DNA of 54,701 bases, taken from IMG/VR virus record IMGVR_UViG_3300045988_148989; one strand, given 5' to 3'. The notes under the pieces are model-generated. The model worked only from the letters and a program-made list of their open reading frames with translations, was not told the DNA's origin and searched no databases. Positions 9,386 to 54,582 of the stretch are shown here, piece by piece; the stretch's first letter is position 1, and the number at the start of each line of letters is the position of its first letter. The translations under genes were made by a program, and so were the position numbers. This DNA is from a virus.

Positions 9386-9793
9386 ATGCTATATTTAAGT
9401 TATAAAATAAAAAAGGAGTGCTATTTGTTGAAGATTCAAAAAAGTATTAATACAAAGGATATAGGAGCGAAGATAAAACATTTAAGAAAAATGCGATCAA
9501 TGACACAAGATGAATTAGGTGTTGTCTTAGGTGGCTTGTCTAGAGGGCAAATATCTAATCTAGAGACAGGAAGAAGAAATTTAAACATTCATCAGATTAA
9601 GACTCTTGCAGATTATTTTAATGTATCCTTAGAAACATTAGGACTTGTTACAAATGAGATTGAAACCGTTGATTTATTGGAACGTGCAAGAATGATATTT
9701 GAGAATGAGGTCATACCACTAGAAGAAAAACAAGAACTGTATGAAAGTGTGATGAAACTGTATCTTGAAGCAAAAGAACAAGCAAAAAAATGA
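9386..9793 (+). CDS. cI: cI-like XRE-family repressor. The probable true start is TTG at about 9424, after an AAAGGAG RBS.
   Basis: HTH (MTQDELGVVLGGLSRGQISNLETG) and a C-terminal dimerization-like helix. Plus strand, opposite to cro. Confidence 0.7.
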   Translation: MLYLSYKIKKECYLLKIQKSINTKDIGAKIKHLRKMRSMTQDELGVVLGGLSRGQISNLETGRRNLNIHQIKTLADYFNVSLETLGLVTNEIETVDLLERARMIFENEVIPLEEKQELYESVMKLYLEAKEQAKK

Positions 9794-14960: not shown

Positions 14961-14992
14961 CAAATAAAAAAGAGTAGTTTTATAACTACTCT
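14961..14992 (-). terminator. Intrinsic terminator at the end of the lysis cassette.
   Basis: AGAGTAGTT-ttat-AACTACTCT plus TTTTTTAT on the minus strand. It overlaps the stop of 14986..15246. Confidence 0.6.
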
Positions 14993-15246
14993 TCGTTAGT
15001 GATTTCTAACTTTGTTTCAACTTTTCCAACTCGTGATTTTAAATCATCAATCTCTATACCATGCTTTTCTAGTCTTTTGTTCTGTACTGCTTCATCTTCT
15101 TTAATGTGCTCAATGCAACTGTTTAACTTTTCAATGACTATTTTTAATTCATTGATTGGTTGTGTAAACTTATTGATGATTGCAACAAAAGAACCTAATG
15201 TAATCAATGTTAGAACAACATTACCAACAAATTGTGCTTCATTCAT
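14986..15246 (-). CDS. Small membrane-anchored coiled-coil protein of the lysis cassette (XhlA-like?).
   Basis: 86 aa with an N-terminal TM (VVLTLITLGSFVAII) and a C-terminal coiled coil, adjacent to the holin. Confidence 0.4.
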   Translation of the reverse strand: MNEAQFVGNVVLTLITLGSFVAIINKFTQPINELKIVIEKLNSCIEHIKEDEAVQNKRLEKHGIEIDDLKSRVGKVETKLEITNEE

Positions 15247-15256: not shown

Positions 15257-15514
15257 CTATTCTTTGTTGATTACTTGTTTAAACGCTTGATGTAATCCTG
15301 TTGATGCTAAGCCACTGAATAAGCCACCTAATAGAATATCGGGTGTGAAACTCATATTGATCCATACATTTAATACAATTCCTAGAATTGCCATAATCAA
15401 CGGAATGTATTTGTTATCAATCTTAGGAATGCTTGTTTTAATGACAAACCCAACACATAAACAAATGCCAACAATCACACATACTAAATAATTAGTTAAA
15501 AAATCTAAACTCAT
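15257..15514 (-). CDS. Holin (TcdE/phage_holin_4-like).
   Basis: 85 aa with three hydrophobic helices and a charged C-terminus. Confidence 0.7.
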   Translation of the reverse strand: MSLDFLTNYLVCVIVGICLCVGFVIKTSIPKIDNKYIPLIMAILGIVLNVWINMSFTPDILLGGLFSGLASTGLHQAFKQVINKE

Positions 15515-15528: not shown

Positions 15529-17139
15529 TTACAATGTGATAGTTCCTATATTTGTAACCGTATTATCTACGTCTACAGGCTGATTTACAAAGTTACCCAT
15601 AAGCAACTGTTTTCCACTTGCTTTAATGCTTGTACCACTATTTATATTAATTTCGTTATATAGTACCTTTTTGCAAGAATAGCAGCCATAACATGTACCT
15701 GTTGCATTCTCGATATTAAATTTACTATTTGAAACACTCTGACAAGCATAAGCACCATATAATGTACCATAAGCACCATTTATATATACATTGATATTTT
15801 CATGGTTGCCACCATATAAACTATATATAGTTTGTGAACTACTTTGTACTGCTTTTATATTAGCGTTCTTGATAGTCACATTATCTGTACAACTCATTAT
15901 TGCTAGTGTTGTATCAGTTAAAGTTATGTTTGGTATAGTCGCTCTTGAAAAGTCAACTATTACTCTTCTTTTTGATGTTGTATCACTATTAAAATCAAAT
16001 ACATGATTGTCAATAGAAGAAGCAATACCTAATGTTCCATTGACTGAAATATACAACTGCGAATTATCTTGAGCACTTGCATAATTTCCAACCCCATTCA
16101 AGAAGTTTTTGACCATTGTTGATAATGTTTTATTGTCATTATCTCCCGTTGCTTCATATACATATTCACCAATAGCATTTACTTCTTCTTCTAACTTATC
16201 AACTCTTGTAACAGTGCTTTCTGCAATTGTTCCCTCAACACATTTTTTGTTTACAAACTCTATTCTTGTACCGATTCTATCCAATTCATTTGTAAATATA
16301 ACTTGTGTTCCTTGAGCGTTTATACTAAATTCATCTTTTGCTAGTACAAAGCCATTTACACGAATTTCTAATACATCAAGAGAATTGTTTACAAAGTTGA
16401 TTGTGCTAGGTATCGTGAAAGTCTTTTCACCTTGTGCAACTGTTGCGTATATTGCTTTATATTCTCTATAAAGGTTTGCTGATTTAACAGTATCCTTGAT
16501 AGTATCGAACCATATATCAAAGTCACTTTTCTGTGTTGTCTCCCAATTTGTGAAACTCTTGCTTGTCTCATTGATAAATGTATCTTGAGCATCTTTATAT
16601 TGATTGAATAATGTTGTTGTATCAAACTGCTCAATTAGTCCGACAATCCAACCACAAACATCATTATTTGATCGTGTATCTTCAATCATTGAATTTGTGA
16701 TTGATGTTGTATTCTTGTTCACAATGATATTTGCTAAACATATCTCGTATGTTGTTTCATCTCTTGTTAATGATGGTGGTGTAGGTGTTGAGGATAACTC
16801 ACCTTCCAACAATTTAACGTGTGTTAAACGTGTGCTATTGTCTCTTGAGATTACAATTCTATCAATCCTATTCAAGATTACATCACTTGAAGGAATATCA
16901 ATTGTATAATCCTTATCAATCTCAAACCAATTATTTCCTACCTTGCCTCTACCCGATTTAACAATAACCTTCATTCCTGTACTTTCAACAATCTGACAGG
17001 CATCTGAAACCGTTGCAAATATTCCATTATCGGAAATCAAGCCTTTGAAATAGTCATTAACCTGTTCTGCCGTATATGTTCTATCAGGTTCATTATCAAC
17101 CATAATTGCATTGAAAAATCCACTATTTAATTCAATCAT
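15529..17139 (-). CDS. Receptor-binding / tail fibre protein with a pectate-lyase-like beta-helix.
   Basis: 536 aa. The C-terminal portion shows beta-helix repeats (NIKAVQSS...NINVYINGAYGT...CYGCYSC). Confidence 0.55.
   Translation of the reverse strand: MIELNSGFFNAIMVDNEPDRTYTAEQVNDYFKGLISDNGIFATVSDACQIVESTGMKVIVKSGRGKVGNNWFEIDKDYTIDIPSSDVILNRIDRIVISRDNSTRLTHVKLLEGELSSTPTPPSLTRDETTYEICLANIIVNKNTTSITNSMIEDTRSNNDVCGWIVGLIEQFDTTTLFNQYKDAQDTFINETSKSFTNWETTQKSDFDIWFDTIKDTVKSANLYREYKAIYATVAQGEKTFTIPSTINFVNNSLDVLEIRVNGFVLAKDEFSINAQGTQVIFTNELDRIGTRIEFVNKKCVEGTIAESTVTRVDKLEEEVNAIGEYVYEATGDNDNKTLSTMVKNFLNGVGNYASAQDNSQLYISVNGTLGIASSIDNHVFDFNSDTTSKRRVIVDFSRATIPNITLTDTTLAIMSCTDNVTIKNANIKAVQSSSQTIYSLYGGNHENINVYINGAYGTLYGAYACQSVSNSKFNIENATGTCYGCYSCKKVLYNEININSGTSIKASGKQLLMGNFVNQPVDVDNTVTNIGTITL
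15721..15734 (+). promoter_or_regulatory. Dispersed motif copy 7 (tttactatttgaaa) inside the RBP gene 3' region, about 200 bp upstream of the holin.
   Basis: Core ACTATTTGAA. Confidence 0.45.
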
Positions 17140-27358: not shown

Positions 27359-28606
27359 TTATTCACTATTTGAAACACTATCATCTTGATTATTCTGTTC
27401 ACCAACTTGATATTTTGAAGCATCTTTCGTTTTGATGTAGTTCAATGACATAAAGCGTTCGTCTCCACCTTCATAAGGTTGTTCACCAAACCATCCCAAT
27501 ACTTGGTTATTGGTTACACCGCCTGTTGGTAATAGAAGTTCTGCAAGTTTTAGTTTCTTGTCTGCGCTCATCATCTGTATTTCACTTGTATAACAGATAA
27601 TGCTGTTTCCGTTCTTTCTTGCAAATGGTGTTAACATTACTCTTTCAATAGCCTGTCCTAAACTGATAGCACCACTTTCAATAACTGTTTCATAGAATGC
27701 TTCTTTATCTTCACTTGTATATTTACCGTTTAATATTTCTTCACTAACTCCATAATGTCTTCTAATCTTATCATCAAAGAATTTCAATAAATCCTTGCTT
27801 ACAGTTCTACCATAGAAAGGAATAGGATTGTATTCAGTTCCTTGGTCTAAGATAACAAAGCCACTCTTATCGTCATTTAGTTTCTTTTCAAACTCTTGTC
27901 TTTCTTTTTCAAGTTTATCTTTACCAATCAAGCCCGACACTTTAAATATGCCTGTTACTTTTAATGAGCCTTCTATTGATTTGAATGTTGCTTGAATCAT
28001 TTTATCATTAGTTTCTAGGTGTCTAAGAAGTGTTGTATTGTTCGCACTTCCATTTTTATCCCCACCCATATATTCATTCTCACCGTATTCTTTTCTCCAA
28101 TGAATGATTTCATCGTATCTTAATTTTCCACTATGTTTCCCATTCTTAAAAGTGAAGTCAACATATATGATACCTAAATCATCTTCAAAGAAATCAACTC
28201 TAACAGGATTTAAAGGATATAAGGCTTTATATACCTTCTTTGTTCTGCCGTTTGTAGGATTGTAATAAAGATCGTATGTAGGATAAATAAAACAGTTCTT
28301 ATAAGTCTCTCTTAACCATGCGCATTTTCTCAAGAAATCGCTTTGTGTCATTAGATTGTTTGGGTTCTGTAGAATCTCATTGATGTTATTGTCTGTTACT
28401 TTTACTTCCTTACCATTCACAATTCTTATATGTCTAGGCTTCAATTTAGAATATTCATCTAGGATTCTATTTGTGATTGTAAAGACAGTTTCATCATTCA
28501 TTATGTTATCTCCAAATTGAGAGAATGATGGTGTTCCGCTCGTACTACTTGCCCACATAAAAGATTTATTTATTGCTTGTTTTGCTAACTTATCAATCAA
28601 TCCCAC
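27359..28606 (-). CDS. Portal protein.
   Basis: 415 aa, immediately downstream of terL with a start/stop overlap. Confidence 0.75.
   Translation of the reverse strand: MGLIDKLAKQAINKSFMWASSTSGTPSFSQFGDNIMNDETVFTITNRILDEYSKLKPRHIRIVNGKEVKVTDNNINEILQNPNNLMTQSDFLRKCAWLRETYKNCFIYPTYDLYYNPTNGRTKKVYKALYPLNPVRVDFFEDDLGIIYVDFTFKNGKHSGKLRYDEIIHWRKEYGENEYMGGDKNGSANNTTLLRHLETNDKMIQATFKSIEGSLKVTGIFKVSGLIGKDKLEKERQEFEKKLNDDKSGFVILDQGTEYNPIPFYGRTVSKDLLKFFDDKIRRHYGVSEEILNGKYTSEDKEAFYETVIESGAISLGQAIERVMLTPFARKNGNSIICYTSEIQMMSADKKLKLAELLLPTGGVTNNQVLGWFGEQPYEGGDERFMSLNYIKTKDASKYQVGEQNNQDDSVSNSE
27362..27375 (+). promoter_or_regulatory. Dispersed motif copy 10 (ttcactatttgaaa), overlapping the portal stop codon.
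   Basis: Core ACTATTTGAA. Confidence 0.45.
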
Positions 28607-30354
28607 TATTCAACACCTCCATTATATTCATTTACATGTTTCATGTATTCATTCTCATATCTATATAATATTGCATACGTGTCTATGCATGCACTAGTTC
28701 CATCAATTCGCATCTCTGTCTTCATCTTAGCAGGTAAGATTAATTCATTGTTATCCATTTCAAATGTTGTATTTTTGAAACACCATAAATCAACTTCATT
28801 AAGCCCTTGAACATATTGAGATTTTAAATCTGCTTCAAGATGTTTCATTGGTGTACTCATTACATATTTATTCTGATTTATCATTTCACACGTTTCACCT
28901 TTTCTATATCCGTATCCTATTTCCTTCATAGCATTTAAGAAATCATTTGCAAAACGTTGATCGTATCCTAATTTGAATATTCTAATGTTGTATTGCTCAA
29001 ATACTCTTAGATACCATTCAGCAACTTTTGAAAGTGAAACTCTATTACCTTCATGAACCTCAATGAATCCTCTTTGCGCCCATTCTCTATATCTTGCTCC
29101 ACCGTTCTTATCACTGTCTAATTTGCTTTCGGGAATGAAATACTTGTTATAGAAATATTTATGTTCATCATTAGGCTTCATGAACATCATTGTTACACAC
29201 GTTAAATCTGATGTTTGCGATAAGTCTGCTCCTGCTATCGCTACACAATTTCTAAAGTCTTCAAGTGAATAGATATTTTGAGGGTAAAAGCAATCATCTT
29301 GTAGCCATGCTTCTGCACTATTCTGTTTGATGTTGAAATCCTTACATAACATATGTACTTTTGAAGACTTTGATAGTTTAGCCTTAATCATATTCTTTTC
29401 AATGAATGACCATTTCTTTACTCCATAAATCAATGATGGATTAGATTTGCACCAACTCCATTTATCTTGAAATATTTCTTGTGTAGAATCCTGTGTGAAT
29501 AGCCAAGGTAAGAAATGCTCGTCCTCTATTTCACCATTCAAAACACCTCTAGCATATTCTAGTTTTTCATCAAGAAGCCCATCATTAATAAAACCTTCTG
29601 TTGTACACGTTATTAACAATGGGTTTTCTTTGATAGACATACTTTCCCAACATGCCATAAATATTTCGTTCGTCTTGCTATCATGCATTTCATCATAATA
29701 GCACTTGTCAATATTTCGTCCATCTTTATTTTGTGTCTTTTCACTCATTTTGAATATTGTGATGTTCTTTATATCGTTTCTTATTTCTGCTAAATTTTGC
29801 CTTGTGAGTTCGCTTTTAGTGTCAAGCCTACCTCTCATACCTCCAATCTCTTTCCATATGAGAGAGGCTTGCTTATCGTCATTTGAAGCACATACAATAT
29901 CCTCTCCACCACTGCCAAGAAATAAATCATAATTTCCATCACTTGCAAGGTCTGTTGATTTGCCGTTTTTTCTTCCTACAAGTTCAAGAACCTCATTGAA
30001 TCTCCTTATTCCTGTATCTGCCATCTTGAAACTATATACAACTTCCCAAAATGCTTTTTGTTGTAGCATTAGACTCATAGCCTTCATAAAGAAAGGCTTT
30101 TTTCCTTGCAAGCAACACGTTTCTTTGAATTGTATTCTCTTTTCGCTTTCTTTTGTATCATATATGTATTTAGAATTTGAAAGGTCTTCAACAAGTTTAT
30201 TTATTTCTGTTCTCATTTCCATACCAACAATTAAAGGTGTTTTGATATATTCATCTTTCTCTTCGTTGTATAAATCAATATAGCCTTTATTTATACAATC
30301 TTGATAGGTTTCCAACCATGTTTCTTTTGTTTTGTGATATAAAGGTTTATTCAA
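28606..30354 (-). CDS. terL: Terminase large subunit (PBSX/Terminase_6-like).
   Basis: 582 aa with an ATPase Walker A-like GRKNGKST and a C-terminal nuclease region. Confidence 0.85.
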   Translation of the reverse strand: MNKPLYHKTKETWLETYQDCINKGYIDLYNEEKDEYIKTPLIVGMEMRTEINKLVEDLSNSKYIYDTKESEKRIQFKETCCLQGKKPFFMKAMSLMLQQKAFWEVVYSFKMADTGIRRFNEVLELVGRKNGKSTDLASDGNYDLFLGSGGEDIVCASNDDKQASLIWKEIGGMRGRLDTKSELTRQNLAEIRNDIKNITIFKMSEKTQNKDGRNIDKCYYDEMHDSKTNEIFMACWESMSIKENPLLITCTTEGFINDGLLDEKLEYARGVLNGEIEDEHFLPWLFTQDSTQEIFQDKWSWCKSNPSLIYGVKKWSFIEKNMIKAKLSKSSKVHMLCKDFNIKQNSAEAWLQDDCFYPQNIYSLEDFRNCVAIAGADLSQTSDLTCVTMMFMKPNDEHKYFYNKYFIPESKLDSDKNGGARYREWAQRGFIEVHEGNRVSLSKVAEWYLRVFEQYNIRIFKLGYDQRFANDFLNAMKEIGYGYRKGETCEMINQNKYVMSTPMKHLEADLKSQYVQGLNEVDLWCFKNTTFEMDNNELILPAKMKTEMRIDGTSACIDTYAILYRYENEYMKHVNEYNGGVE

Positions 30355-30652
30355 ACTGTTTTAACATCTCCATCAATGGACTATCTTCTTTAACATCAAA
30401 CTTACCTAAAGTAGATAGTATAATCTTGATCTTGCTATCATGCCTTTGTGAAAGGTCTGAATACTCTTTAGAAAGATATTTCTTTTGTTCTGCCTTTGTT
30501 TTGTTAGTTGGAATACCTATTTTTAATAATGCTTCTTTGATTTTCTCTATTTGTTCCTGTTCAAAAAGAAAATCGGGTATCATACTTGATAAAACTTCTT
30601 TCTTTCCATCATCTAAGTTATTAAATATACTTTTTAACTGTTCTTCTGTCAT
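30347..30652 (-). CDS. Hypothetical protein overlapping the terL start, a possible alternative small terminase subunit.
   Basis: 101 aa with an 8-nt overlap onto terL and an AAAGGTG RBS. Confidence 0.3.
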   Translation of the reverse strand: MTEEQLKSIFNNLDDGKKEVLSSMIPDFLFEQEQIEKIKEALLKIGIPTNKTKAEQKKYLSKEYSDLSQRHDSKIKIILSTLGKFDVKEDSPLMEMLKQFE

Positions 30653-30991: not shown

Positions 30992-31729
30992 CTATATGAT
31001 GAATGATGTACTTATGAAATGATAATCACTTGCATTAAAAGATGTAGCCGTTGAATTCATTATCTCTATCAATCCAGTTGTACTTATTTGATAAGTATCT
31101 ATCTTTCCACCCGTTCTAGCCTGAGTGAAGTATAATGCTTTGCTTGGTCTATATCCTTCGGGTAATACTCCAATCTCTTTTGTTTTGGTTGTGACCCCTT
31201 TTACTGCTCCTTCAATGAATACTATGTTTCCTTGTTTCTTGCATCTAACAGGATAAGTAGTTGAGTTATGTACTGTAATCCCACTCTTTAATGTGATACT
31301 ACTATATCCACTATCTAATATTGGAATACACTTTCCGTTTAATGTGATCTTGTTTTCTTTTATCTGTAAATAGTTGTTTGTTGTTACTACTCCATCTTTG
31401 GCTATAACTCTTCTCATTACTCCTGTTGGAGTTAAAAAGGTAAAATGTAATTCACTATTGCTATGATATACATTAATTAAAAAGTATTCGCTTGTTGTTC
31501 CTATATCTGTTTGAGTAGTATACCTATATTTACCCGTCACCTTATAAAGTCCATTGGTTAAGTTGTCAAAGACAATAACATTATTGTCAGTTCCTTTTAA
31601 CAAAGGTAAATTGCTTCCTACATTATTTATCATTCCTTTTAATACTCTGCCTTGATTGGCGCTTAATGCATCTGTTACTGATGTGCTATTCAAATTATCA
31701 ATAACGTTTATAATTGCTCTGCTTTCCAT
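30992..31729 (-). CDS. Receptor-binding-protein-like paralog (shares a domain with 32606..33331 and 34963..35793).
   Basis: Likely start MESRAIINV after AAAGGAGG. Shared segment NNVIVFDNLTNGLYKVTGKY. Confidence 0.5.
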   Translation of the reverse strand: MESRAIINVIDNLNSTSVTDALSANQGRVLKGMINNVGSNLPLLKGTDNNVIVFDNLTNGLYKVTGKYRYTTQTDIGTTSEYFLINVYHSNSELHFTFLTPTGVMRRVIAKDGVVTTNNYLQIKENKITLNGKCIPILDSGYSSITLKSGITVHNSTTYPVRCKKQGNIVFIEGAVKGVTTKTKEIGVLPEGYRPSKALYFTQARTGGKIDTYQISTTGLIEIMNSTATSFNASDYHFISTSFII

Positions 31730-31885
31730 ATACATACCTCCTTTATAATTTATTCTTGTATGCACTAAGGAACTATCAAGTGAAAGGAATAGCCTTAATA
31801 GTTCCATACTAAATACAAATAGGACTTACATATTAAACATAGAAATTATAAGAAAGGAGAATATTCACAACACGTTTAATAATGC

Positions 31886-31898
31886 CCACTATTTGAAT
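31886..31898 (+). promoter_or_regulatory. Dispersed motif copy 11 (ccactatttgaat) upstream of the RBP-like gene 30992..31729.
   Basis: Core ACTATTTGAA. Confidence 0.5.
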
Positions 31899-31899
31899 A

Positions 31900-32595
31900 C
31901 TAAGGTTGATACTTCTTAGCATAATCATTTATATACTTTGTCCACTCTTCTATGTCTCTGCCTTGTGGATTTTCATATAGTCTTTTTAGACATTCTTCTT
32001 TAGGAGTATCAATATGAATAACTTCATCTACTCCCAATTTATCAATGATTCTTTTTCTTTCCATCACATAAGGACATGTAGTAATAACCCATGCATTAAA
32101 CCATGAACCTCTTCTAGTTTTGATTATTTCATATATAGCACGTTTGATATCAAATACAGGTTCTTTCAATCTATTAGGCTTGATGTATCTTTCATTCAAG
32201 GAAATCATCTGCCATATTGAATCTATATCACATACTATATCATCTACTCTTTTATTTTCTCTTACAAATGTTGTCTTTCCACTACATGAATTTCCGTGTA
32301 CTAGTATAACTTTGCTTTGATAGTATCCAAACCTTTCATGTATCTCGTTATGTGACTTATGAGACACAATCATAATGTTATCGGGATTTAATGAAATGTT
32401 AGGATCATTCACGTTTGTTAGATTCAATTCTATCTTGTGATGAAAGACCATGTCATATTTTCTATAAATCGGGTTTCCTGTGTACTCGTCAATAATATCA
32501 CCGTTCTCATTTATTCGTTGTGATATTATGTATTTCTTTAAGTCGCTCCATTCCTTGCTAGAATAGAATTGATTTAAGTTTGTAAAGTATCTCAT
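31900..32595 (-). CDS. HNH endonuclease domain fused to a P-loop NTPase/kinase-like domain.
   Basis: The N-terminus carries HH...N...N...HKSHNEIH. The C-terminus carries the Walker A motif GNSCSGKTT. Confidence 0.55.
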   Translation of the reverse strand: MRYFTNLNQFYSSKEWSDLKKYIISQRINENGDIIDEYTGNPIYRKYDMVFHHKIELNLTNVNDPNISLNPDNIMIVSHKSHNEIHERFGYYQSKVILVHGNSCSGKTTFVRENKRVDDIVCDIDSIWQMISLNERYIKPNRLKEPVFDIKRAIYEIIKTRRGSWFNAWVITTCPYVMERKRIIDKLGVDEVIHIDTPKEECLKRLYENPQGRDIEEWTKYINDYAKKYQP

Positions 32596-32605
32596 ATATC
32601 ACCTT

Positions 32606-33331
32606 TTAAATTGCAAACGATATTTCAAACGGTAGCCATGCAGTAGTTGGAACTTTTGCATTTGCTGTTGTTCCATATCTAGCAATGGTTACAGTTCCGT
32701 TTGTATTTACTGCCAAACACCAAACATTTTTACCCGAACCTTGACATATTTTAACTATTCCATAAGTTGTTCTATATCCTGTTGGCAATGTAAATATTAC
32801 CTTGCCTGTTGCACTTGCTTCTAGTTCAGTACTTGGAGATACACACCCACGAATATAAACAACACCGTTCTTTTTTCTGTATCTTGGCTTGTTATCGCTA
32901 TTGTTTGCATATGGTATGAAATCGTTTGTTAATGTTGCATCAATCCAACCTGTATCATCTAAATCTTGATATGTTGTATTTGTGATTGAATATCTTAATG
33001 TTCTTGAACTATCAATTACTGTTGCATATGTCACTGAACTTGATTTATCAATCATTACATAAGCGAATGGATCAACTCCACTAATACCACTCTGATTAGA
33101 GTTACATTTGAAATACCCTTTAATCTTATATAATCCACTGTTTAAATTCCTTAATATGATTGGACTATTTGCATTTAGGCTTTCTTTATAAGTAAGTAAA
33201 CTATCTAGTTGTTCATCAATATCACTAATTACATATAATTCATTTGCTTTCAATAAATTACTAGCCTTAGCACTTTTATATTGTGCCAAGGTTAGTTTGT
33301 TTATTGTAGCGCCATTTAATGTTTGTGCCAT
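32606..33331 (-). CDS. Receptor-binding-protein-like paralog.
   Basis: 241 aa with SPIILRNLNSGLYKIKGYF, which aligns to its paralogs. Confidence 0.5.
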   Translation of the reverse strand: MAQTLNGATINKLTLAQYKSAKASNLLKANELYVISDIDEQLDSLLTYKESLNANSPIILRNLNSGLYKIKGYFKCNSNQSGISGVDPFAYVMIDKSSSVTYATVIDSSRTLRYSITNTTYQDLDDTGWIDATLTNDFIPYANNSDNKPRYRKKNGVVYIRGCVSPSTELEASATGKVIFTLPTGYRTTYGIVKICQGSGKNVWCLAVNTNGTVTIARYGTTANAKVPTTAWLPFEISFAI

Positions 33332-33332
33332 A

Positions 33333-34040
33333 TTACCAAATGATTGTTTTAACTGTAGGCACTGTAATATTTACTTCTTTGTTTGTGATTGTTTGAGCAA
33401 CTCCATTTACTTTAATAGATTCTAGTTTGTTTGCTTGTGCGTTTGATGGTGCATGTGCCTGTTGTGAATGAGTGTATGCAGTATCATAATGGCTTTTTAA
33501 TGTGTTTGTTAAGTCATTTGTAACTGTTGGGATTTCACTTTTCAATGCATAATTAGTTAAATCAATTGATGTATCGCCAATCTTTTCCCATTTGTTATTC
33601 ACATATAAATATTCATCATAGATATTGTTTGTTTCTGTTTTTGACTTTGGTACTAAATAAATAGTCTTATTACTAATGTTTGATGTTGGTAATGCAGTAA
33701 CTACTAATACATTCAACGTTGTAATGCCATTGATTAATTCATTTACTTCTGTTTTAGAATATGTATTTGTCTTTAGATAATAGTTTGTTAAATCATTTAC
33801 GGCTTTTGTAACAAAGTTAACATCGTTTGATAATTCACTTAGTTTAGTAGGATTCTTTTGTGCTCCTGTTTCAATGCCATTTAATTTAGTCTTTTCATCA
33901 CTTGTATAAACATTATCATCTGTAAAAATCCATATTTCTTGTTCTTGCATTGTTGGTGTGATCGTACCGTTTGCAACATTTGTATCATACAACGCTTTTG
34001 TTATCTTATTAATTCTTACTTGATTTAATTCCTGTGACAT
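33333..34040 (-). CDS. Tail fibre-like protein.
   Basis: Contains KTKLNGIETGAQKN, matching the repeat unit of the 36436..37743 fibre. Confidence 0.5.
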   Translation of the reverse strand: MSQELNQVRINKITKALYDTNVANGTITPTMQEQEIWIFTDDNVYTSDEKTKLNGIETGAQKNPTKLSELSNDVNFVTKAVNDLTNYYLKTNTYSKTEVNELINGITTLNVLVVTALPTSNISNKTIYLVPKSKTETNNIYDEYLYVNNKWEKIGDTSIDLTNYALKSEIPTVTNDLTNTLKSHYDTAYTHSQQAHAPSNAQANKLESIKVNGVAQTITNKEVNITVPTVKTIIW

Positions 34041-34055
34041 AATGATTACCTCCTT

Positions 34056-34787
34056 TTACACTCTTTTTGTATAACTTAATTTAATCCAACCTACATTTGA
34101 TTTAAGTCTTCCCCAACCATTTCTTTCTTCAACAATTGTGTATCTATATGGTTTCTTGACATTTGTAACAATACTTGAATTTGTTGTTGGTTCTTTTCTT
34201 ACATGCAATACATCTGCTGTTATTTCTACAATGTAGTTAACATTATTAGATGTATTTGTTGTATTGCTTGCTTCAATATTTCTATTTAAAATTCCTTCAA
34301 CTATTGCTTTAGCACACTTTTCAGCATTCCAATGTGCTTTATCCTTCGAATTATCAACAAAACAACATTCAACTAAAAGTGCTGGTGAACTAGTCTTTCT
34401 TAATACATATAAATTAGTTTTTGTTTTAACTCCTCTGTTTCTGATACCTAGAGTATTAGAAACCTTTTCTGCAATTCTAGTTGCTTCGTCTTTTGCTTTT
34501 GACTTATTGCTATATACATATACCTCTGTTCCTGTTCCACCTCCTGCATTTAGATGAATAGATACATCTAAATCAACAGAATGTGAATTACATTTGTTAA
34601 CAATTGCTCTTAGATTTGCTTTTTGTGAAGTGCTATTATCATCTGTGCAATCATAGACAGTATGACCATTTGCACGTAACATTTCTATTACTCTATTCTT
34701 TACTTTTCTATCTTCATTTACTTCATCAAGATAGCCACTAGCACCACGACATTTTAAGGAATGTCCACCATGTACATTAATTCTCAT
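34056..34787 (-). CDS. Endolysin: N-acetylmuramoyl-L-alanine amidase (Amidase_3) plus a C-terminal SH3b domain.
   Basis: HGGH...E...SIHLNAGGG zinc-ligand pattern and a C-terminal SH3-like region. Likely start MRINV after a GGAGG RBS. Confidence 0.8.
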   Translation of the reverse strand: MRINVHGGHSLKCRGASGYLDEVNEDRKVKNRVIEMLRANGHTVYDCTDDNSTSQKANLRAIVNKCNSHSVDLDVSIHLNAGGGTGTEVYVYSNKSKAKDEATRIAEKVSNTLGIRNRGVKTKTNLYVLRKTSSPALLVECCFVDNSKDKAHWNAEKCAKAIVEGILNRNIEASNTTNTSNNVNYIVEITADVLHVRKEPTTNSSIVTNVKKPYRYTIVEERNGWGRLKSNVGWIKLSYTKRV

Positions 34788-34798
34788 AATATTACCTC

Positions 34799-34963
34799 CT
34801 ACCAAATAATAGTCTTGTAATTACTTACATCAACAATATTGTTTTCTAATTGAATAACTCTTAATTCCAATGCTTGAATTGCTTCATTTAACACTCTTCC
34901 CATGTTTGCAGATAAAGCATTATTTTTATCATGACTTGTTAATTCATCATAAACCTCAATCAT
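34799..34963 (-). CDS. Small hypothetical protein (54 aa), below the ORF-track cutoff.
   Basis: Manual translation MIEVYDELTSHDKNN...KTIIW. The C-terminal KTIIW is shared with 33333..34040. Confidence 0.3.
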   Translation of the reverse strand: MIEVYDELTSHDKNNALSANMGRVLNEAIQALELRVIQLENNIVDVSNYKTIIW

Positions 34964-35793
34964 CATACCACCTTGCTTTCTAGTGCTTCTATTCTACTTA
35001 CTAAATCACTTATTGAAACACTTTGTGAATCATAATCATTTTCAGTTATCGCATAATATTGAATTTGATTGTTATAAGCGAAAAACAATTGAATGTAAGA
35101 TGTTGTTGATGTTGTCGCTACATAAGCAACCAATGGAATTTGTGCAATAATGCTTTTAGGCGCTCCCTCATATGCTTTGAAATATCCATGTAGCATATAA
35201 GCACCACTTTGAAGACTTTTCAATATAACAGGATTATTTCTGTCCATGCTTTCTATTACTTCTATAGGCTTGTTTTCAAGTACATTGTAATCACTTGTTC
35301 CACCTGTTACCGTCTTATACTGTCCATCATTTGCAAGGTACTTTGTTCCGTCTCCACTTGTATCTACAATGTTTTTCATCTCGTCAAGTGTCTTTTTCGC
35401 TTCACTGATGAAGTCGGGATTTTCTTTTTGAAGCGTTTCACTTGCATTAATGCTATCCATCACATAGAACTTGTATGTATATGACTTAAATACATAATTA
35501 TCATCATTTCTTAACACAACTTCACATTTCAATTCACCTTTAGAATCTAGAAGGCTGTTAACCATTTCAAACGTTGCGTTATATGTTCCATCTTCTTTTT
35601 TATTTAATTTTAATGGCTTGCTTACATACTTCTCACCGTTAGACTTTTCAAACTCTAAATATAAATCCTTATCACCTAACAACGAATCAACATTTATTGA
35701 TAGGATTGTTGATTTATTCTCATTTGTTTTACCAATAATATGTTGGTCACTTGATACGATCCTATCATCACTAATTGATAATGTTATAACCAT
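34963..35793 (-). CDS. Receptor-binding / baseplate-like paralog.
   Basis: 276 aa. The C-terminal NPVILKSLQSGAYMLHGYFKAY aligns to the other two paralogs. Confidence 0.5.
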   Translation of the reverse strand: MVITLSISDDRIVSSDQHIIGKTNENKSTILSINVDSLLGDKDLYLEFEKSNGEKYVSKPLKLNKKEDGTYNATFEMVNSLLDSKGELKCEVVLRNDDNYVFKSYTYKFYVMDSINASETLQKENPDFISEAKKTLDEMKNIVDTSGDGTKYLANDGQYKTVTGGTSDYNVLENKPIEVIESMDRNNPVILKSLQSGAYMLHGYFKAYEGAPKSIIAQIPLVAYVATTSTTSYIQLFFAYNNQIQYYAITENDYDSQSVSISDLVSRIEALESKVV

Positions 35794-35795
35794 AA

Positions 35796-36086
35796 TTAAG
35801 CCTTCTTAGGTCTGCCACGTTTTGGCTTTGACTCTTCAACATTTGGCTTTTCTTCTTCAACATTTGGCTTTTCTTCTTCAACATTTGGCTTTTCTTCTTC
35901 AATGTTTGGTTTTTCTTCTTCAATGTTTGGTTTTTCTTCTTCTACAAAACAACAAAATGGTTTTCTGTCATATGTTGTTGATGTTAGTACTTTTGCTCTT
36001 TCTTCATCAACTTCAATAACTTCATCTTTTTCAACTATTCTGTTTAGTAATAAATCTTTGTATCTTAAATTTGCTTTTACTTTCAT
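35796..36086 (-). CDS. Repeat protein with (EEEKPNI/V)x5 and a C-terminal AT-hook-like KRGRPKK.
   Basis: 96 aa encoded across a 21-bp x5 tandem repeat. Confidence 0.45.
   Translation of the reverse strand: MKVKANLRYKDLLLNRIVEKDEVIEVDEERAKVLTSTTYDRKPFCCFVEEEKPNIEEEKPNIEEEKPNVEEEKPNVEEEKPNVEESKPKRGRPKKA
35836..35940. repeat. 21-bp tandem repeat x5 (tcaacatttggcttttcttct and variants).
   Basis: Seen directly in the sequence. It is in-frame and encodes the EEEKPNV heptads. Confidence 0.85.
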
Positions 36087-36098
36087 TGTTTCATCTCC

Positions 36099-36425
36099 TT
36101 ATAAATTAGTAGCCTTATTTACAATAAAATGGACTTTACAACCTTTTTCAATTGCTTTAGTCAATATAATGTTTGTGTTGTTTTTATTTGTGTATTCTGT
36201 GTTGTCTAATCTCATACCGTTTATATAGACTTCAAGGATATCTGCACCATACCTATATTGAGAAATATTAATAGGAATAGTGCTTACATCTCCTGTTGCA
36301 GTATAAGTTGATTTATATTGAACTAACTTGAGCGCATAATCATGCGTATGATTTTTTAATGCAAATGTATTTTTTAATACACTCCACAAATGTGTTAATC
36401 CCGAATCATCAAGGTATTTTGACAT
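36099..36425 (-). CDS. Short tail fibre-like protein, N-terminal paralog of 36436..37743.
   Basis: MSKYLDDSGLTHLWSVLKNTF versus MSKYLDENGLTYLWSKIKGTF. Confidence 0.4.
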   Translation of the reverse strand: MSKYLDDSGLTHLWSVLKNTFALKNHTHDYALKLVQYKSTYTATGDVSTIPINISQYRYGADILEVYINGMRLDNTEYTNKNNTNIILTKAIEKGCKVHFIVNKATNL

Positions 36426-36435
36426 TTATATTCAC

Positions 36436-37743
36436 CTACTTACAAATGGTATCAATATCATCATTTGATAACGAATTGATAACAAATAATCCTCCTAATG
36501 CATCCCATGCTTCTCCTGTCCATGCAACGTTTGTTCCTGCTGGTCCGTATTCACTTGCATCTGTTAAATTATACGTATCACCTACAATCTGATTTGCTGT
36601 TGGCAATGAAGCACTTGTGATAGAACCTTTGTATTTATATAAACCTGCTAAATCTGTTTTCAATGCATAGGAACTTGCAGATAGAAAGCCGTCTAACTTC
36701 TTTTTATCTGTTGAAGACATCAACCCATTTACTGTTTGTGTTGCTGTTGAATACGTTGTGTTTGTGCTTGGGATTCCTAAAGCGGTAATATCTGATTTTG
36801 ATACGGCTGTAGTTGCACTTACATGTCCTGTAGAATCAACAGTAATATTATACAATCCACTAGTTTTAGAAGCGTATGTAGGGTGTACATATTTATTCGC
36901 TCCTGTCGCAATTCCATCTAATTTTACTTTATCGCTTGCGATCATCAACCCATCTGTTGTAGTTGTTACAGGGTTATATTTTGTATCGTTTGGAGTAGCC
37001 CACGTTCCATTTCCACATAAGAATTTCCATTGCTGACTTGTCTGTGGTGCAGGAACTAGTCCACTTGTTCCGCTTGTATCTGCTGTTGCTCCTGTCATGA
37101 CTGAATATGTTGTATCCTGTGAAGGAATCCCTAAAGCGGTAATATCGCTTTTTGAAACGTTTGCAGTACTTGAAACGTGCCCTGTTCCGTCAATAGTGAT
37201 TTTATAAAGCCCACTTGTTTTGGCGGTATATGCTGGGTGCACATATTTATTTGCACCTGTTTCAATGCCATTTAATTTTGTTTTATCACTTGAAGACATC
37301 AAACCATTTGATGTAGTTGTTGCTAGGTTATATTTTGTATCGTTTGGAGTGCTCCATGTGCCATCTGCACATAAGAACTTACTTTGGTCACCTTTTGAAG
37401 GCTTTGGAACTAGTCCATGTGTTCCGTCTGCTGTTGCCGTTGCTCCTGTCATGTCTGAATATGTTGTATCTTGTGATGGAATCCCTAAAGCAGTGATATC
37501 ACTCTTAGAAACATTTGTAGTACTTGAAACATGACCTTTTTCGTCAACAGTGATTTTATAAAGACCATTTGTTTTTGAAGTATAACTTGGGTGCGTGTAA
37601 TTGCTTAACCCTGCTAGTTTGTTCTTTTCTGCTGTTGTGTAATCGTTTGTACTCAGACCTTTACCACTTTGCTGTGCTACAAACGTTCCTTTTATCTTAC
37701 TCCATAAATAAGTTAAACCATTTTCATCTAAATATTTTGACAT
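36436..37743 (-). CDS. Tail fibre protein with about 118-aa tandem repeats.
   Basis: 435 aa. The unit ...KLNGIETGANKYVHP.YT.KTSGLYKIT.D.TGHVSST.NVSKSDITALGIPSQDTTYS is repeated about three times. Confidence 0.6.
   Translation of the reverse strand: MSKYLDENGLTYLWSKIKGTFVAQQSGKGLSTNDYTTAEKNKLAGLSNYTHPSYTSKTNGLYKITVDEKGHVSSTTNVSKSDITALGIPSQDTTYSDMTGATATADGTHGLVPKPSKGDQSKFLCADGTWSTPNDTKYNLATTTSNGLMSSSDKTKLNGIETGANKYVHPAYTAKTSGLYKITIDGTGHVSSTANVSKSDITALGIPSQDTTYSVMTGATADTSGTSGLVPAPQTSQQWKFLCGNGTWATPNDTKYNPVTTTTDGLMIASDKVKLDGIATGANKYVHPTYASKTSGLYNITVDSTGHVSATTAVSKSDITALGIPSTNTTYSTATQTVNGLMSSTDKKKLDGFLSASSYALKTDLAGLYKYKGSITSASLPTANQIVGDTYNLTDASEYGPAGTNVAWTGEAWDALGGLFVINSLSNDDIDTICK
36620..37660. 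repeat. About 354-bp tandem repeat (around 2.9 copies) inside the tail fibre gene.
   Basis: The anchor ggaatccctaaagcggtaatatc recurs at 36771, 37124 and 37478 with high identity. Confidence 0.75.
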
Positions 37744-37758
37744 TATTTCATCACTCCT

Positions 37759-38286
37759 TTATTTGCAAATATAATCTATGTCAATGTTTGTTAATGATTC
37801 AACCGAATCTCCTTTAGTCATTTCAATAACACCTTTTGAAGATACGGAAATTGTATTACCAATCTGAACAACACCTAAATTTTCATGGCTTGTGATAGGT
37901 ATATCATAAGGACTATCTGAAGTATCTAGAAGCCTTCTAACCAAGAATATTCCATCAAGGTAATTAACCATTATTTCACTATCATCTAATAGCAGTTTTT
38001 CAGTCTTGAATGTAAATTGTGTTCCATAACCATCTACATACTTGACTTTGATATACATCATACCAATCTCTTTGTATAGAGAAAACGGAAGTGTATAATA
38101 TAGAAATTTATCATCTTTTGTATAATTCGTTATTTGATACGTTTTACTATTTGTTTCGATTTGTAAATATTCAACCTCTTTTGGTTGAAGCCTTACCTTG
38201 ATTTCTATTGAATTATCACCACAACCCATTGAAGTAGAACCCGTGCAAGTTCCTTCTAGACAATCAAGATCGCATATATTTCTCAT
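37759..38286 (-). CDS. Hypothetical tail fibre-associated protein.
   Basis: 175 aa. The C-terminal IDIDYICK resembles the DDIDTICK C-terminus of 36436..37743. Confidence 0.4.
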   Translation of the reverse strand: MRNICDLDCLEGTCTGSTSMGCGDNSIEIKVRLQPKEVEYLQIETNSKTYQITNYTKDDKFLYYTLPFSLYKEIGMMYIKVKYVDGYGTQFTFKTEKLLLDDSEIMVNYLDGIFLVRRLLDTSDSPYDIPITSHENLGVVQIGNTISVSSKGVIEMTKGDSVESLTNIDIDYICK

Positions 38287-38298
38287 TTTTTTATGCCT

Positions 38299-39396
38299 TT
38301 ATACATTTTCTGCAATAAGCCATACATCTAACTGAATTTTAGTGATGTTTGAATAATTCATTCGACCACTATTGTTTGGACCTGTCTGCTTCAACTGCAT
38401 ATATAACTCATAAGTATCACTCCATACGTTGAATACAACAGGCACATCATAATTCTTACCATTAGATGTTATAATGCACGTTGCATGTTGAGTACCTATA
38501 TTTGGTGCTCTCCAAGGAAAGGCACATACATTTCTAGGGGCATACAATTTGAATGCATTATATCCATTACTATTAAGGTTATTGACAGGTTCGTCAAATA
38601 TAATTCTATATATATTAATATCTCCAAGACATTGACCATATATTGTTCCGTTAAAAGTGCCACCATTTAATCTAGTACTTAATTGTCTTCTATCTATGCA
38701 ATTACTTCCTGTGCCAAGGATATATCCTTTTAAATATTCAGCGATACTTTCTTGTCCCCATTCGTTAGGGTGAAACCAATCTGTAGCCATCATATTTTCA
38801 AACGATAGAATATTTTCAGCACCTGGAACTACTACAAACGGCTTATTTGTATATGTTGCCATAGTCTTATAGATTGGCAACATATCATACTTTAATCCAT
38901 ATTGGTTACCGCTGTTTTTGAAATCTACTCCAAATGGAGCAAAATGTATAATTGCATTTGGATATGTACTTTCAACATATGATATTAAAGTGTTAATATT
39001 TGACTTTACTACATCATTCTTTCCTCTGTATGATAATTCATTGCACCCTCCACCAATCAATACATCTGTAATGATGTTTTTATTAGAAACTTTATTTTCT
39101 ACACCTTTTAATAGTGCTAAATAGTTATTTGATGGATCGCTAAAACTTGCTCCACCTCTATAATTGATAAAAATATTATCAGCATTTGCATGGCAATTAA
39201 CCAATTTTGATTTTAATCTATCACACCAACCCGTTATAATCCCATTTGGTGTATAACCTTGTCCGTATGAATCGCCAATAAAAATATAACCTTTGCTTGA
39301 AATAGGCATGCTTGATTTAATATCAACAGTTTCTTTGTCATATGTTTCAATCAAACATTTGTTATCACATATTCCATATACTTTTTCATGTGCCAT
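38299..39396 (-). CDS. SGNH/GDSL hydrolase (putative receptor-modifying esterase) with a C-terminal beta-rich domain.
   Basis: IFIGDSYGQGY GDSL motif. Likely start MAHEKVYG after a GGAGG RBS. Confidence 0.55.
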   Translation of the reverse strand: MAHEKVYGICDNKCLIETYDKETVDIKSSMPISSKGYIFIGDSYGQGYTPNGIITGWCDRLKSKLVNCHANADNIFINYRGGASFSDPSNNYLALLKGVENKVSNKNIITDVLIGGGCNELSYRGKNDVVKSNINTLISYVESTYPNAIIHFAPFGVDFKNSGNQYGLKYDMLPIYKTMATYTNKPFVVVPGAENILSFENMMATDWFHPNEWGQESIAEYLKGYILGTGSNCIDRRQLSTRLNGGTFNGTIYGQCLGDINIYRIIFDEPVNNLNSNGYNAFKLYAPRNVCAFPWRAPNIGTQHATCIITSNGKNYDVPVVFNVWSDTYELYMQLKQTGPNNSGRMNYSNITKIQLDVWLIAENV

Positions 39397-39410
39397 TATT
39401 TTACCTCCTT

Positions 39411-39878
39411 TTAAATATTCCAATCTTTATCATCTGCAAGTTTCTTCTTTAACTCTAATTCTGCTTGCTTTAGTTCATAACTATCCCAATCATTTTTCCA
39501 ATTATCCTTATCATAGTTCTTGAGTAATAAATGTAATGCTCCTGTATCTCCGTCAACTTCTTTTGTTGTTATTTCAGTATGCTTTCTAGTAGAACCATTT
39601 TCATCTTGAGTAACATATGTTTTCTTGGTTTCTAGAGTATGTTTAAATGCTTTCTTTATCATTTCACTTCTTAAATCTAAAACTAAACTTGATCGCCCTT
39701 TTTTTAAGGCTTCTTTTAATTCCATTTTTTCCTTATGAACATTGAAAGCACTAACTGAAATTCCTAACGCTTCACATATCTGTTTTTCAGTAGCACCACT
39801 TTTAACCCATTCTTCTATTTTATTTATATTTGGAAATATGACAGTGTCATAAACGCTTTTTCTTCCTCTTTTAGACAT
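39411..39878 (-). CDS. HTH DNA-binding protein, small-terminase-subunit-like (or a late regulator).
   Basis: 155 aa. The N-terminal HTH TEKQICEALGISVSAFNVHKEK and its architecture resemble Terminase_2-type TerS. It is separated from terL by about 9 kb. Confidence 0.4.
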   Translation of the reverse strand: MSKRGRKSVYDTVIFPNINKIEEWVKSGATEKQICEALGISVSAFNVHKEKMELKEALKKGRSSLVLDLRSEMIKKAFKHTLETKKTYVTQDENGSTRKHTEITTKEVDGDTGALHLLLKNYDKDNWKNDWDSYELKQAELELKKKLADDKDWNI

Positions 39879-39962: not shown

Positions 39963-40175
39963 TTCAATTTTTTAACAATTAAAAAAGACAGTGAATATTT
40001 CACTGCCCTTTTTAGGAAAAACGTTTATACGCTTCTCAATTTGGGAAAAAAGTGTTTTGTTTGTCTCGTACCAAATCTAAGAACACTAATAACGATGGTA
40101 CACCTAGAAGGTTCTGCCCCTCCGTTTATCCCTTATAAGGAGACCACTCTACTATTGAGTTATAGGTGTATACGG

Positions 40176-40249
40176 TGTTGAATTGAGGATTCGAACCCCT
40201 GTCCTCTAGTCTCCACGACTAGATATTCTACCTTTGAACCATATCCAAC
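40176..40249 (-). tRNA. tRNA-like gene with a non-canonical anticodon arm (anticodon possibly UGG/Pro if the loop is 7 nt).
   Basis: The reverse complement reads GTTGGAT...GGGGTTCGAATCCTC AATTCAAC A. It has a 7-bp acceptor stem, a perfect GTTCGAATC T-loop and GG in the D-loop. The anticodon hairpin TCTAGTC-GTGGA-GACTAGA has a 7-bp stem and a 5-nt loop. Confidence 0.5.
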
Positions 40250-40578: not shown

Positions 40579-40608
40579 TATATCCTCTCTCTCTTTCTAT
40601 ATATACTT

Positions 40609-40637
40609 ATTATACTATATGTATTACATACATTCAA
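40609..40637 (-). promoter_or_regulatory. Promoter of the conserved family: TTGAAT-N17-TATAAT with the palindrome in the spacer.
   Basis: Minus-strand reading. Confidence 0.6.
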
Positions 40638-40892
40638 GCGATTTTACTTATTTTTTGCAACAAAAAAAGGAACTATATTATATATAGCCCCTTTAAAAGG
40701 AATAACCCTTTTTTATGTGTTTTGGAGGACACACAACCAAAATGAAAACAAGTAAACCAAAACGACAAACTAATGACAACCAAAGTGAGGTGTCCTATTC
40801 ACCTCAAATAACATTATACATGTTTTTACATTTTTTACAACGAATATTATACATATTTTTACATTTTTTACAACATAAAAAAAGAACGCTTT

Positions 40893-49525: not shown

Positions 49526-49527
49526 TT

Positions 49528-54483: not shown

Positions 54484-54533
54484 TTTTCTTTTCCTTATGA
54501 GTTCCTTTGAACTCCCTTTCTTAATACAAGTAC

Positions 54534-54562: not shown

Positions 54563-54582
54563 GGGTTTATTTACATTTTTTT

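Follow-up and report, generated by a model that had tools for sequence, protein, structure and literature searches.

What are receptor-binding, tail-fibre, esterase and endolysin genes doing ahead of the packaging genes of a siphovirus whose holin is encoded at the far end of the late genes? This question is raised by a block of genes at positions 30,992 to 39,878 of the IMG/VR virus record IMGVR_UViG_3300045988_148989, a stretch of 54,701 nucleotides (nt) which was analysed at full length and is referred to here as the window. The answer that we consider probable, if by a modest measure, is that the block holds the trans-encoded specificity modules of a single BppU-type baseplate together with the endolysin, and that it opens a late operon of the lambda/HK97 type, where it occupies a slot prone to recombination. 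The conserved backbone around it consists of a terS-like gene with a helix-turn-helix (HTH) motif (A), a first cargo slot (slot 1), an HNH/P-loop gene (L), a second cargo slot (slot 2), a gene for a protein of 101 amino acids (aa; N) and the gene for TerL. The features of the window on which the argument is built are the following, where RBP stands for receptor-binding protein and TM for transmembrane.

A, 39411..39878, minus strand: HTH terminase-small-like protein, 155 aa, upstream edge of slot 1 (phrog_309, 2.2e-22).
B, 38299..39396, minus strand: SGNH/GDSL esterase, 365 aa (PF00657; phrog_31573, 1e-161).
C, 37759..38286, minus strand: 175-aa protein with a C-terminal tail in common with D and a homolog in the metagenomic phage L022.
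D, 36436..37743, minus strand: fibre protein, 435 aa, with three 118-aa repeats (several PHROG fibre-repeat families).
E, 36099..36425, minus strand: 108-aa protein with a D-like N-terminal anchor and a baseplate-protein domain (blastp).
F, 35796..36086, minus strand: 96-aa acidic-repeat protein with a basic C-terminal tail (21-nt repeats).
G, 34963..35793, minus strand: 276-aa protein, its C-terminal ~80 aa K/M-like (blastp).
H, 34799..34966, minus strand: 55-aa Phage_fiber_rpt protein (PF22337, 4.2e-10).
I, 34056..34787, minus strand: endolysin, N-acetylmuramoyl-L-alanine amidase with SH3b (Amidase_3, SH3_3, phrog_435).
J, 33333..34040, minus strand: 235-aa fibre-like protein (blastp; phrog_24103, 3.4e-17).
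K, 32606..33331, minus strand: RBP, 241 aa, predicted TP901-1/p2-type head (model, Foldseek, profile).
L, 31900..32595, minus strand: HNH endonuclease with a P-loop kinase-like domain, 231 aa (phrog_4581, 7.7e-38; phrog_119 HNH).
M, 30992..31729, minus strand: paralog of K, 245 aa, N-terminal Phage_fiber_rpt, in slot 2 (PF22337, 1.4e-12; PHROG minor-tail matches).
N, 30347..30652, minus strand: 101-aa protein overlapping the terL start (homologs directly upstream of terL).
TerL, 28606..30354, minus strand: large terminase (TerL_ATPase and TerL_nuclease matches precomputed for identical proteins).
536-aa baseplate protein, 15529..17139, minus strand: encoded after Tal, with a BppU-like N-terminal half and a beta-rich C-terminal domain (homology, model).
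Holin, 15257..15514, minus strand: Hol44 family (PF16079, 2.8e-16; phrog_1129).
XhlA-like protein, 14986..15246, minus strand: single TM segment (TM prediction).

Slot 1 of the window holds ten genes (B, C, D, E, F, G, H, I, J and K) over 6.8 kb, and slot 2 holds the RBP paralog M. All open reading frames (ORFs) named in the original prediction for this DNA were recovered on the minus strand with the same boundaries, and its SGNH esterase, 118-aa-repeat fibre, short D paralog and EEEKPN repeats were confirmed by Pfam, repeat and blastp evidence; its gene list was incomplete, as it passed over C, H, L and N.

The window is a complete temperate HK97-type siphovirus genome. Bases 1-119 are identical to bases 54583-54701 and the contig is therefore circular, with a length of ~54.58 kb. 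That the phage is temperate follows from a large serine recombinase gene (10084..11949, plus strand) residing beside an HTH_3 repressor-like gene (9386..9793, plus strand). The G+C content is ~30% and nearly all genes are on the minus strand, where they follow each other in the order early genes, two tRNAs, A (39878..39411), block, TerL, portal, S78 protease, major capsid protein, connectors, major tail protein, tape measure protein, Dit, Tal (Sipho_Gp37), 536-aa protein, Hol44 holin, XhlA-like protein, small ORFs and integrase.

The host-recognition and fibre nature that had been ascribed to the block proteins is borne out by K. A model of K built from a 43-homolog alignment (mean predicted local distance difference test, pLDDT, 91.5) was matched by Foldseek to the PDB entries 3d8m, 3da0, 2bse, 4ios, 2f0c and 6r5w with a probability of ~1.0 and target TM-scores of 0.46-0.70, the root-mean-square deviation being 3.1-3.8 Å over ~115 residues for the head-domain matches and 7.6 Å for the top match 3d8m. 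The best solved-structure matches are the RBPs of the lactococcal phages TP901-1 and p2 and gp15 of the Listeria phage PSA, and the family profile of K matches PDB 30yz_W, a 'receptor-binding protein', with 6.7e-9. On the strength of the model, K is taken to carry an RBP head of the lactococcal type, as is M by paralogy and G in part. The original prediction had assigned a common C-terminal RBP-like domain to these three proteins on the basis of the signature (N)P(V/I)IL..SG.Y..GYFK. This holds for K and M, which are paralogs over their full length (blastp E=9e-10); the signature, however, is the start of a two-subdomain module, and G (residues 181-254 against K 50-121, blastp E=3e-8) has only the first subdomain of ~75 aa in common with K. 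Over its length, G is 41% identical to a 270-aa protein of L022.

The other fibre-type proteins of the block are connected to each other by short shared segments. The start of H overlaps the stop of G, its C-terminal 'KTIIW' is also found in J, and it matches the N-terminus of M (blastp E=2e-5), while J matches D through the repeat motif (blastp E=2e-8) and the N-terminus of K with E=0.011. D contains three copies of a 354-nt (118-aa) tandem repeat with the motif T..DK.KL.GI..GA; among close relatives its length is 435, 317 or 242 aa depending on the contig, and a full-length D-like fibre is encoded between the HNH gene and N in the prophage of a Lactonifactor isolate (L083). The short protein E shares its first ~35 aa with D (51% identity, blastp E=3e-7) and matches both residues 226-299 of the 536-aa protein, an Ig-like domain (blastp E=4e-7), and a 542-aa tail protein of the Butyrivibrio phage Arian (E=2e-7). 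C and D end in a shared 'DIDxICK' tail (blastp, C-terminal 14 aa, 64% identity), and the N-terminus of C, with the motif 'MRNICD.DC', is fused to a K-like head in the metagenomic phage L023, which is one example of N-terminal segments being shuffled among the block proteins and their relatives. F is made of EEEKPN(I/V) repeats encoded by 21-nt units, five copies and one degenerate, whose number differs among relatives (75-96 aa), and it is probably not an RBP. A homolog of its N-terminal domain with EEPEEEP repeats is found at 14414-14623 of MT835488 (L018), between the HNH gene and the small ORF upstream of terL, i.e. in the other slot; the F gene therefore moves between the two cargo slots. 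As to attachment, a cysteine-mediated head-to-tail docking of the C-terminal 'IDxICK' of C and D with the N-terminal 'ICDxxCL' of B and C was considered and dropped because the cysteines are not conserved in the L022 homologs. The GC skew across the fibre genes (33000-38000) is -0.01 to -0.09, compared with -0.2 to -0.4 elsewhere in the minus-strand genome, which may reflect amino-acid composition or foreign origin.

The K, M and G genes of the window lie upstream of terL and not in the baseplate operon after BppU or Tal, where homologs do reside in other prophages. Homologs of the C-terminal domain of K have this textbook position in unrelated prophages: L019 reads Dit–Tal–BppU_IgG protein–K homolog–XhlA–holin–amidase, and L024 reads Tal–…–K homolog–holins–amidase. 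This directs attention to the protein that follows Tal in the window. The gene order there is Dit–Tal–536-aa protein, and the 536-aa protein had been called a conventional RBP; its place after Tal is as described, while its N-terminal half looks like BppU by homology, and thus like an adaptor. Residues 6-223 are homologous (E=2.7e-15) to the L019 protein whose partner RBP is the K homolog; the BppU_IgG domain of that protein is at residues 240-325. Hundreds of BppU-sized homologs of ~300 aa, many of them 296-301 aa long, cover only the N-terminal half (residues ~1-300). The model (pLDDT 84.8) consists of a beta domain (1-160), a helix (174-218), an Ig-like beta domain (223-301) and a beta-rich C-terminal domain. 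A fold search with this model returned weak multi-domain baseplate and fibre matches only, and direct sequence searches of the PDB gave nothing useful for the 536-aa protein, D or B.

If these elements are put together, the block proteins would be late virion proteins which dock by their N-terminal anchors on a Dit–Tal–BppU-like baseplate, giving one adsorption device with multiple RBPs and an esterase that would deacetylate the host surface. Synthesis of the endolysin would begin with late transcription, as it does in lambda and HK97, and the enzyme would stay in the cytoplasm until lysis, whose timing would be set by the Hol44 holin and XhlA encoded at the distal end of the late region. Ancestrally, the genes for holin, XhlA and amidase would have been neighbours upstream of the packaging genes, an arrangement that L023 retains, and recombination would have split them in the window phage.

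Several points weigh against this proposal of a single baseplate with displaced lysis partners. The docking onto the 536-aa protein is deduced only from gene content and domain homology, and this protein has no Pfam match at E<=0.01, BppU_N and BppU_IgG included. Its own C-terminal domain, well folded in the model, could itself bind a receptor. Furthermore, L051, with a TerL 45% identical to that of the window, encodes a 240-aa protein with a K/M-like head (10580-11302) between the tail-terminator and major-tail genes, and K/M-like heads can therefore be mounted elsewhere on the virion. Finally, the direction in which holin and XhlA would have been displaced is a parsimony argument from few relatives. 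As a separate observation, L051 also has three extra genes among its head-tail connector genes.

The original prediction offered a second adsorption apparatus as one explanation, and the block could indeed be a second, independent device in which accessory side fibres and the esterase act beside a complete 536-aa RBP. We regard this as unlikely. The 175 residues of the beta-rich C-terminal domain of the 536-aa protein are modelled with confidence and could bind a receptor, the block has at least five types of N-terminal anchor, more than one BppU arm might take, and G and C might be adaptors of their own; yet the ~300 N-terminal aa which the 536-aa protein shares with its homologs have the size and position of BppU, and they are homologous to a BppU_IgG-containing protein that is paired with a K homolog. 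Among close relatives the 536-aa protein diverges evenly along its length and the C-terminus is not hypervariable. Because no BppL-type RBP gene follows the BppU-like gene, the block more likely supplies the RBPs of one baseplate.

A reading that fares worse, and which we consider improbable, is that the block proteins are fibres of the head, neck or tail tube (decoration or whiskers) and not baseplate RBPs. The genes do adjoin those for head and packaging functions, D has a weak Pfam match to the phi29 head-fibre family (E=0.009, below the cutoff), and the L051 gene described above lies between tail genes. The fold and sequence homologs of K are, by contrast, baseplate RBPs; homologs of K and B are encoded elsewhere after Tal or BppU and before the holin; and E shares a domain with a baseplate protein.

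Returning to the proposed single baseplate, the esterase B provides a clear case of an exchangeable module with an anchor of its own. B reaches the Pfam cutoff for PF00657 (26.1 bits, cutoff 23.6), while PF13472 stays below it (29.3 bits, 1.5e-6, cutoff 32.9). Residues G41, D42, S43, G81/G82, G116/G117, N119, D206 and H209 are invariant across 13 homologs, so that SGNH blocks I (GDS), II (G), III (GxN) and V (DxxH) with the catalytic Ser, Asp and His are all retained, and the protein looks like a catalytically intact SGNH esterase. A beta-rich domain forms its C-terminus. The first ~32 residues are conserved within the window lineage even where the body is only 64-72% identical. A large family of B homologs of 380-382 aa, 62-69% identical, is found in the unrelated prophages L105-L107, in the order Dit–Tal–298-aa BppU-like–…–esterase–holin–…–DUF6275–…–Amidase_3, and the esterases of this lineage have another anchor of ~50 residues. 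In one protein, P0188, an anchor of the L105 type precedes a body that has 88% identity to that of the window esterase, and the B-type catalytic body is thus common to both prophage lineages at 62-88% identity. As far as the alignments go, the anchor of the esterase is specific to the lineage and the catalytic body moves between lineages. Tailspikes and RBPs that are attached to virions are classically recognised by this pairing of a lineage-specific N-terminal anchor with an active domain open to exchange. A tblastn search of phages with the esterase gave two weak unannotated matches only.

The question of why these modules are encoded upstream of terL leads to the relatives of the packaging backbone. 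The nearest cultured relatives are the Butyrivibrio phages Arian and Bo-Finn, to whose TerL that of the window is 50% identical. In Arian, a terS-like gene (35% identical) is followed by a 2.8 kb cargo of BspA-type leucine-rich repeat (LRR) proteins, an HNH/P-loop gene (37% identical), a 4 kb cargo (collagen-like/beta-helix protein, endolysin, putative holin), a small ORF and terL. MT835488 has a holin and an M15 lysin between its terS-like and HNH genes. Of the two metagenomic phages, L022 encodes a GH25 lysin just upstream of A, after which come 6.4 kb of fibre genes with homology to C, D, G, H, J, K and M, and L023 has the order holin–XhlA-like–Amidase_3–terS-like–RBP–…–HNH.

To these were added loci from bacterial sequences. 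An alignment-based TerL scan of 185,579 species genomes yielded 227 relatives, of which 80 were kept as loci; their TerL is 38-56% identical and they come mostly from Clostridia metagenome-assembled genomes, while a close TerL search of genome contigs found nothing. Both A and L were detected in 26 loci, and every one of them has the order A–L–(N)–terL. The gap between A and L is about zero in ten of the 26 and 0.4-5.6 kb in the others, and L lies 0.44-3.0 kb from where the terL match begins, a distance of which N makes up ~0.3 kb. The cargo of the slots includes Phage_tail_C and other tail-tip domains, Gp10_C, BspA LRR adhesins, GH25, M23 and M15_4 as well as LysM and CW_7 domains, DNA methylases with ParB_N and SAM synthetase, and lysins or holins are often found directly upstream of A. 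By this comparison of sequences, the layout is a trait of the clade, with two hypervariable cargo slots in a packaging backbone; peculiar to the window phage are the size of slot 1 and the move of holin and XhlA to the end of the tail module.

The three backbone proteins other than TerL can be followed through the same loci. A has no Pfam match and its family profile matches only generic HTH regulators in the PDB, and its homologs are found upstream of HNH–terL in Arian, MT835488, L022, L023 and the 26 prophage loci. The fusion of HNH and P-loop domains in L is conserved near terL across the clade, with 37-64% identity to its counterparts in Arian, MT835488, L022, L023 and the prophage loci; L has weak AAA_18, AAA_33 and dNK matches and the PHROG label 'terminase small subunit', and in the window M and a gap of 339 nt come between it and the N and terL genes. 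The profile of N found nothing meaningful in PDB or Pfam. Homologs of N are directly upstream of terL in 61 of the 80 genome loci, which makes N a conserved partner of TerL and a candidate for the true small terminase.

Close relatives of the window were found in metagenomes. The identical K protein is present in 177 collection blocks, and all eight inspected metagenome contigs of 50-53 kb (ENA and Logan), from different samples, have the identical gene order. IMG/VR holds eight further loci, and those reaching far enough upstream of terL contain the same block genes. With this order in eight contigs and in IMG/VR, and with the synteny check against relatives carried out, the assembly or rearrangement artefact that the original prediction had named as its refutation is not what the data show. 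A megablast search of GenBank phages with the block gave no match. In the near-identical genomes most block genes are 93-100% identical, while the esterase is only 63-70% identical in most of them. Together with the exchange of esterase bodies with an unrelated lineage, this divergence from its neighbours supports the mosaic acquisition that had been proposed; the block as such is not an insertion peculiar to the window phage.

The clade comparison also bears on the separation of endolysin and holin. Endolysin I (Amidase_3 1.4e-28, SH3_3 2.3e-6, phrog_435 8.8e-73) is without signal or TM segment and is 58% identical to the post-tail amidase of L105, and the holin of L105-L107 is 49% identical to that of the window. 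The window holin (15257..15514) is not adjacent to the endolysin and lies ~18.5 kb downstream of it. No TM protein or hydrophobic segment was predicted in the 30-40 kb region, and a search for a second peptidoglycan hydrolase in the tape measure protein, Dit, Tal, the 536-aa protein and the ORFs that follow the holin was negative. The endolysin is therefore truly separated from its holin, and it is the only recognisable one, as had been predicted. A 44-aa ORF between M and N was considered as a holin hidden in the block and rejected, being highly basic and not membrane-like. In L023, the holin and XhlA-like protein are 51% and 37% identical to the post-tail pair of the window, and the pair adjoins the Amidase_3 gene upstream of the terS-like gene. 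Holin and endolysin are also adjacent in MT835488 and Arian. Because members of the clade as a rule encode their lysis genes before the packaging genes, the displaced partner would be the holin and not the endolysin.

In lambda-type lysis it is usual for the endolysin to be produced early in the late phase and to stay in the cytoplasm until a holin, encoded separately, lets it out. Holin and Amidase_3 endolysin are also apart in L105-L107, where seven genes (~2.7 kb, including DUF6275) lie between them, and some phages closely related to that of the window (L003, L006, L007) likewise encode DUF6275 shortly before the amidase. The Bacillus myoviruses Deep-Blue and Vp4 are without a lysis cassette (PMC9327680).

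The original prediction further suggested that the position of the endolysin might serve a different timing. The sequence lends this no support: the block genes are ~10-15 nt apart or overlap, with several overlapping stop and start codons, a consensus scan of the minus strand from 40389 to 29500 detected no terminator, and promoter-like sites do not exceed their frequency in shuffled sequence. Separate control of the block by its own promoter or terminator was considered and found no support in these consensus scans. The simplest reading of the sequence is one late transcript that would run through the block into terL. Upstream of it, two tRNA genes (40099-40169 and 40174-40249, minus strand) are found just before the terS-like gene, namely a tRNA-Pro(TGG) detected by ARAGORN and Rfam and a second tRNA detected by Rfam only; a hairpin terminator lies near 39990 after the tRNAs, and weak promoter-like sites are seen before A.

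A mosaic insertion acquired recently and only once, or a chimera made in assembly, either of which would have displaced the endolysin for a different timing, is scarcely credible in spite of a layout unlike the textbook order of Firmicutes siphoviruses and an esterase allele far more divergent than its neighbours, as the identical synteny recurs in many independent contigs from different samples, the contig is circular, relatives with a TerL only 38-56% identical have the same backbone with cargo and nearby lysis genes, and the block has neither an internal terminator nor an enriched promoter signal.

How the proposed baseplate with displaced specificity genes relates to known systems is best seen one system at a time. 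Arian and Bo-Finn (MN882551, MN882552) have the same backbone with a small ORF ahead of terL, cargo between, and a homolog of the 536-aa tail protein, and their cargo includes an endolysin and a putative holin according to the GenBank annotation (MN882551.2); the paper on these phages lists a holin only for Bo-Finn and does not comment on the layout (PMC7372960). Unlike the window, they have BspA-type LRR and collagen-like/beta-helix cargo and not K/M-type RBPs with an esterase, their holin and endolysin are adjacent upstream of terL, and no integrase is annotated. With the baseplate of TP901-1 and Tuc2009 and the RBP of p2 the window has in common the head fold of K and the order Dit, Tal (Sipho_Gp37), BppU-like gene. 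In contrast to TP901-1 and Tuc2009, the RBP genes are ~16-19 kb away from the BppU-like gene and upstream of terL, several paralogs have different N-terminal anchors, and the BppU-like protein has an extra C-terminal part of ~235 aa and no direct Pfam match to BppU.

The late operon of lambda and HK97 (lysis genes, an HNH gene in HK97, cos, terS, terL) is similar in that the endolysin is encoded ahead of the packaging genes and an HNH gene lies near the terminase genes, and most relatives of the window keep a whole lysis cassette there. It differs from the window, where the host is of Gram-positive type judging by Amidase_3 with SH3b and XhlA, holin and XhlA are at the distal late end, and RBP and fibre genes lie in the region. 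T5-like phages and actinophages provide precedents for RBP, tail or endolysin genes that are detached and ahead of the terminase, likened here by description; these are unrelated lineages and proteins, with single genes as opposed to a ten-gene block of multiple paralogs. Endolysin genes upstream of the terminase are known from Arthrobacter clusters AM and AU and from Cluster A mycobacteriophages, and tail genes upstream of terL from cluster AQ (PMC5513430).

The esterase resembles tailspikes in its modular exchange, with a lineage-specific anchor and a body shared at 62-88% identity with another lineage, and is unlike them in its anchor of only ~32 aa and in being known here from genes alone. 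The tailspikes of P22, Sf6 and HK620 and the esterase gp63.1 of G7C have a conserved N-terminal particle-binding domain and a receptor-active domain that is exchanged horizontally. Each element of the window layout thus has a precedent. New is the combination of a multi-paralog set of RBPs, fibres and esterase with the endolysin in slots of the packaging module, in a clade of Clostridia siphoviruses, which is a variant of genome organisation and not a new mechanism.

A wider proposal can be made more tentatively, and we hold it to be rather doubtful: that a clade of siphoviruses of gut and rumen Clostridia has uncoupled its specificity genes from tail morphogenesis and moved them into a recombination hot spot in the packaging module, where RBP heads, fibres and esterase with plug-in anchors would be swapped as cassettes to build a branched multi-RBP baseplate on a conserved BppU-like adaptor. 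If true, such a baseplate would be the counterpart, in siphoviruses of Gram-positive hosts, of the branched tailspike systems of CBA120 and G7C. For annotation the layout matters, as pipelines and tools for host-range prediction that search for RBPs only downstream of the tail genes would miss all specificity determinants of this widespread clade of gut phages and would also mislabel the BppU-like adaptor as the RBP. The backbone with its two slots offers a defined site at which host-range cassettes for Lachnospiraceae-type hosts can be sought or engineered, and nature provides, with the exchange of anchor and body in the esterase, a clean case of plug-in tail enzymes in siphoviruses of Gram-positive hosts.

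Some observations concern non-coding and early regions of the window. An intergenic element of ~98 nt occurs in four copies (12695-12792, 14742-14839, 40589-40686 and 54514-54611); read on the minus strand, it is a promoter close to the consensus (TTGACT/TTGAAT, 17 nt, TATAAT) whose spacer holds the palindrome ATATGTAATACATAT, and it looks like a shared operator-controlled promoter that would head four transcription units. Between 40660 and 40900 on the minus strand, a promoter-like sequence (TTGTAA, 16 nt, TATAAT) occurs twice in tandem at a distance of 33 nt; after it come ~130 nt in which no convincing ORF is seen, and then two terminator-like hairpins. The region has no match in Rfam and may encode a small regulatory RNA that precedes the late genes. 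At the boundary of early and late genes, a non-coding 44-nt direct repeat (41294-41337 and 41431-41474, 82% identical) containing TTGATTAGTAC.AAGTAACTAAT may be an operator or an origin-like site. Among the early genes there are two paralog pairs, 46765-47973 with 50062-51423 and 48368-49006 with 49016-49558, whose shared DNA segments are 72-75% identical.

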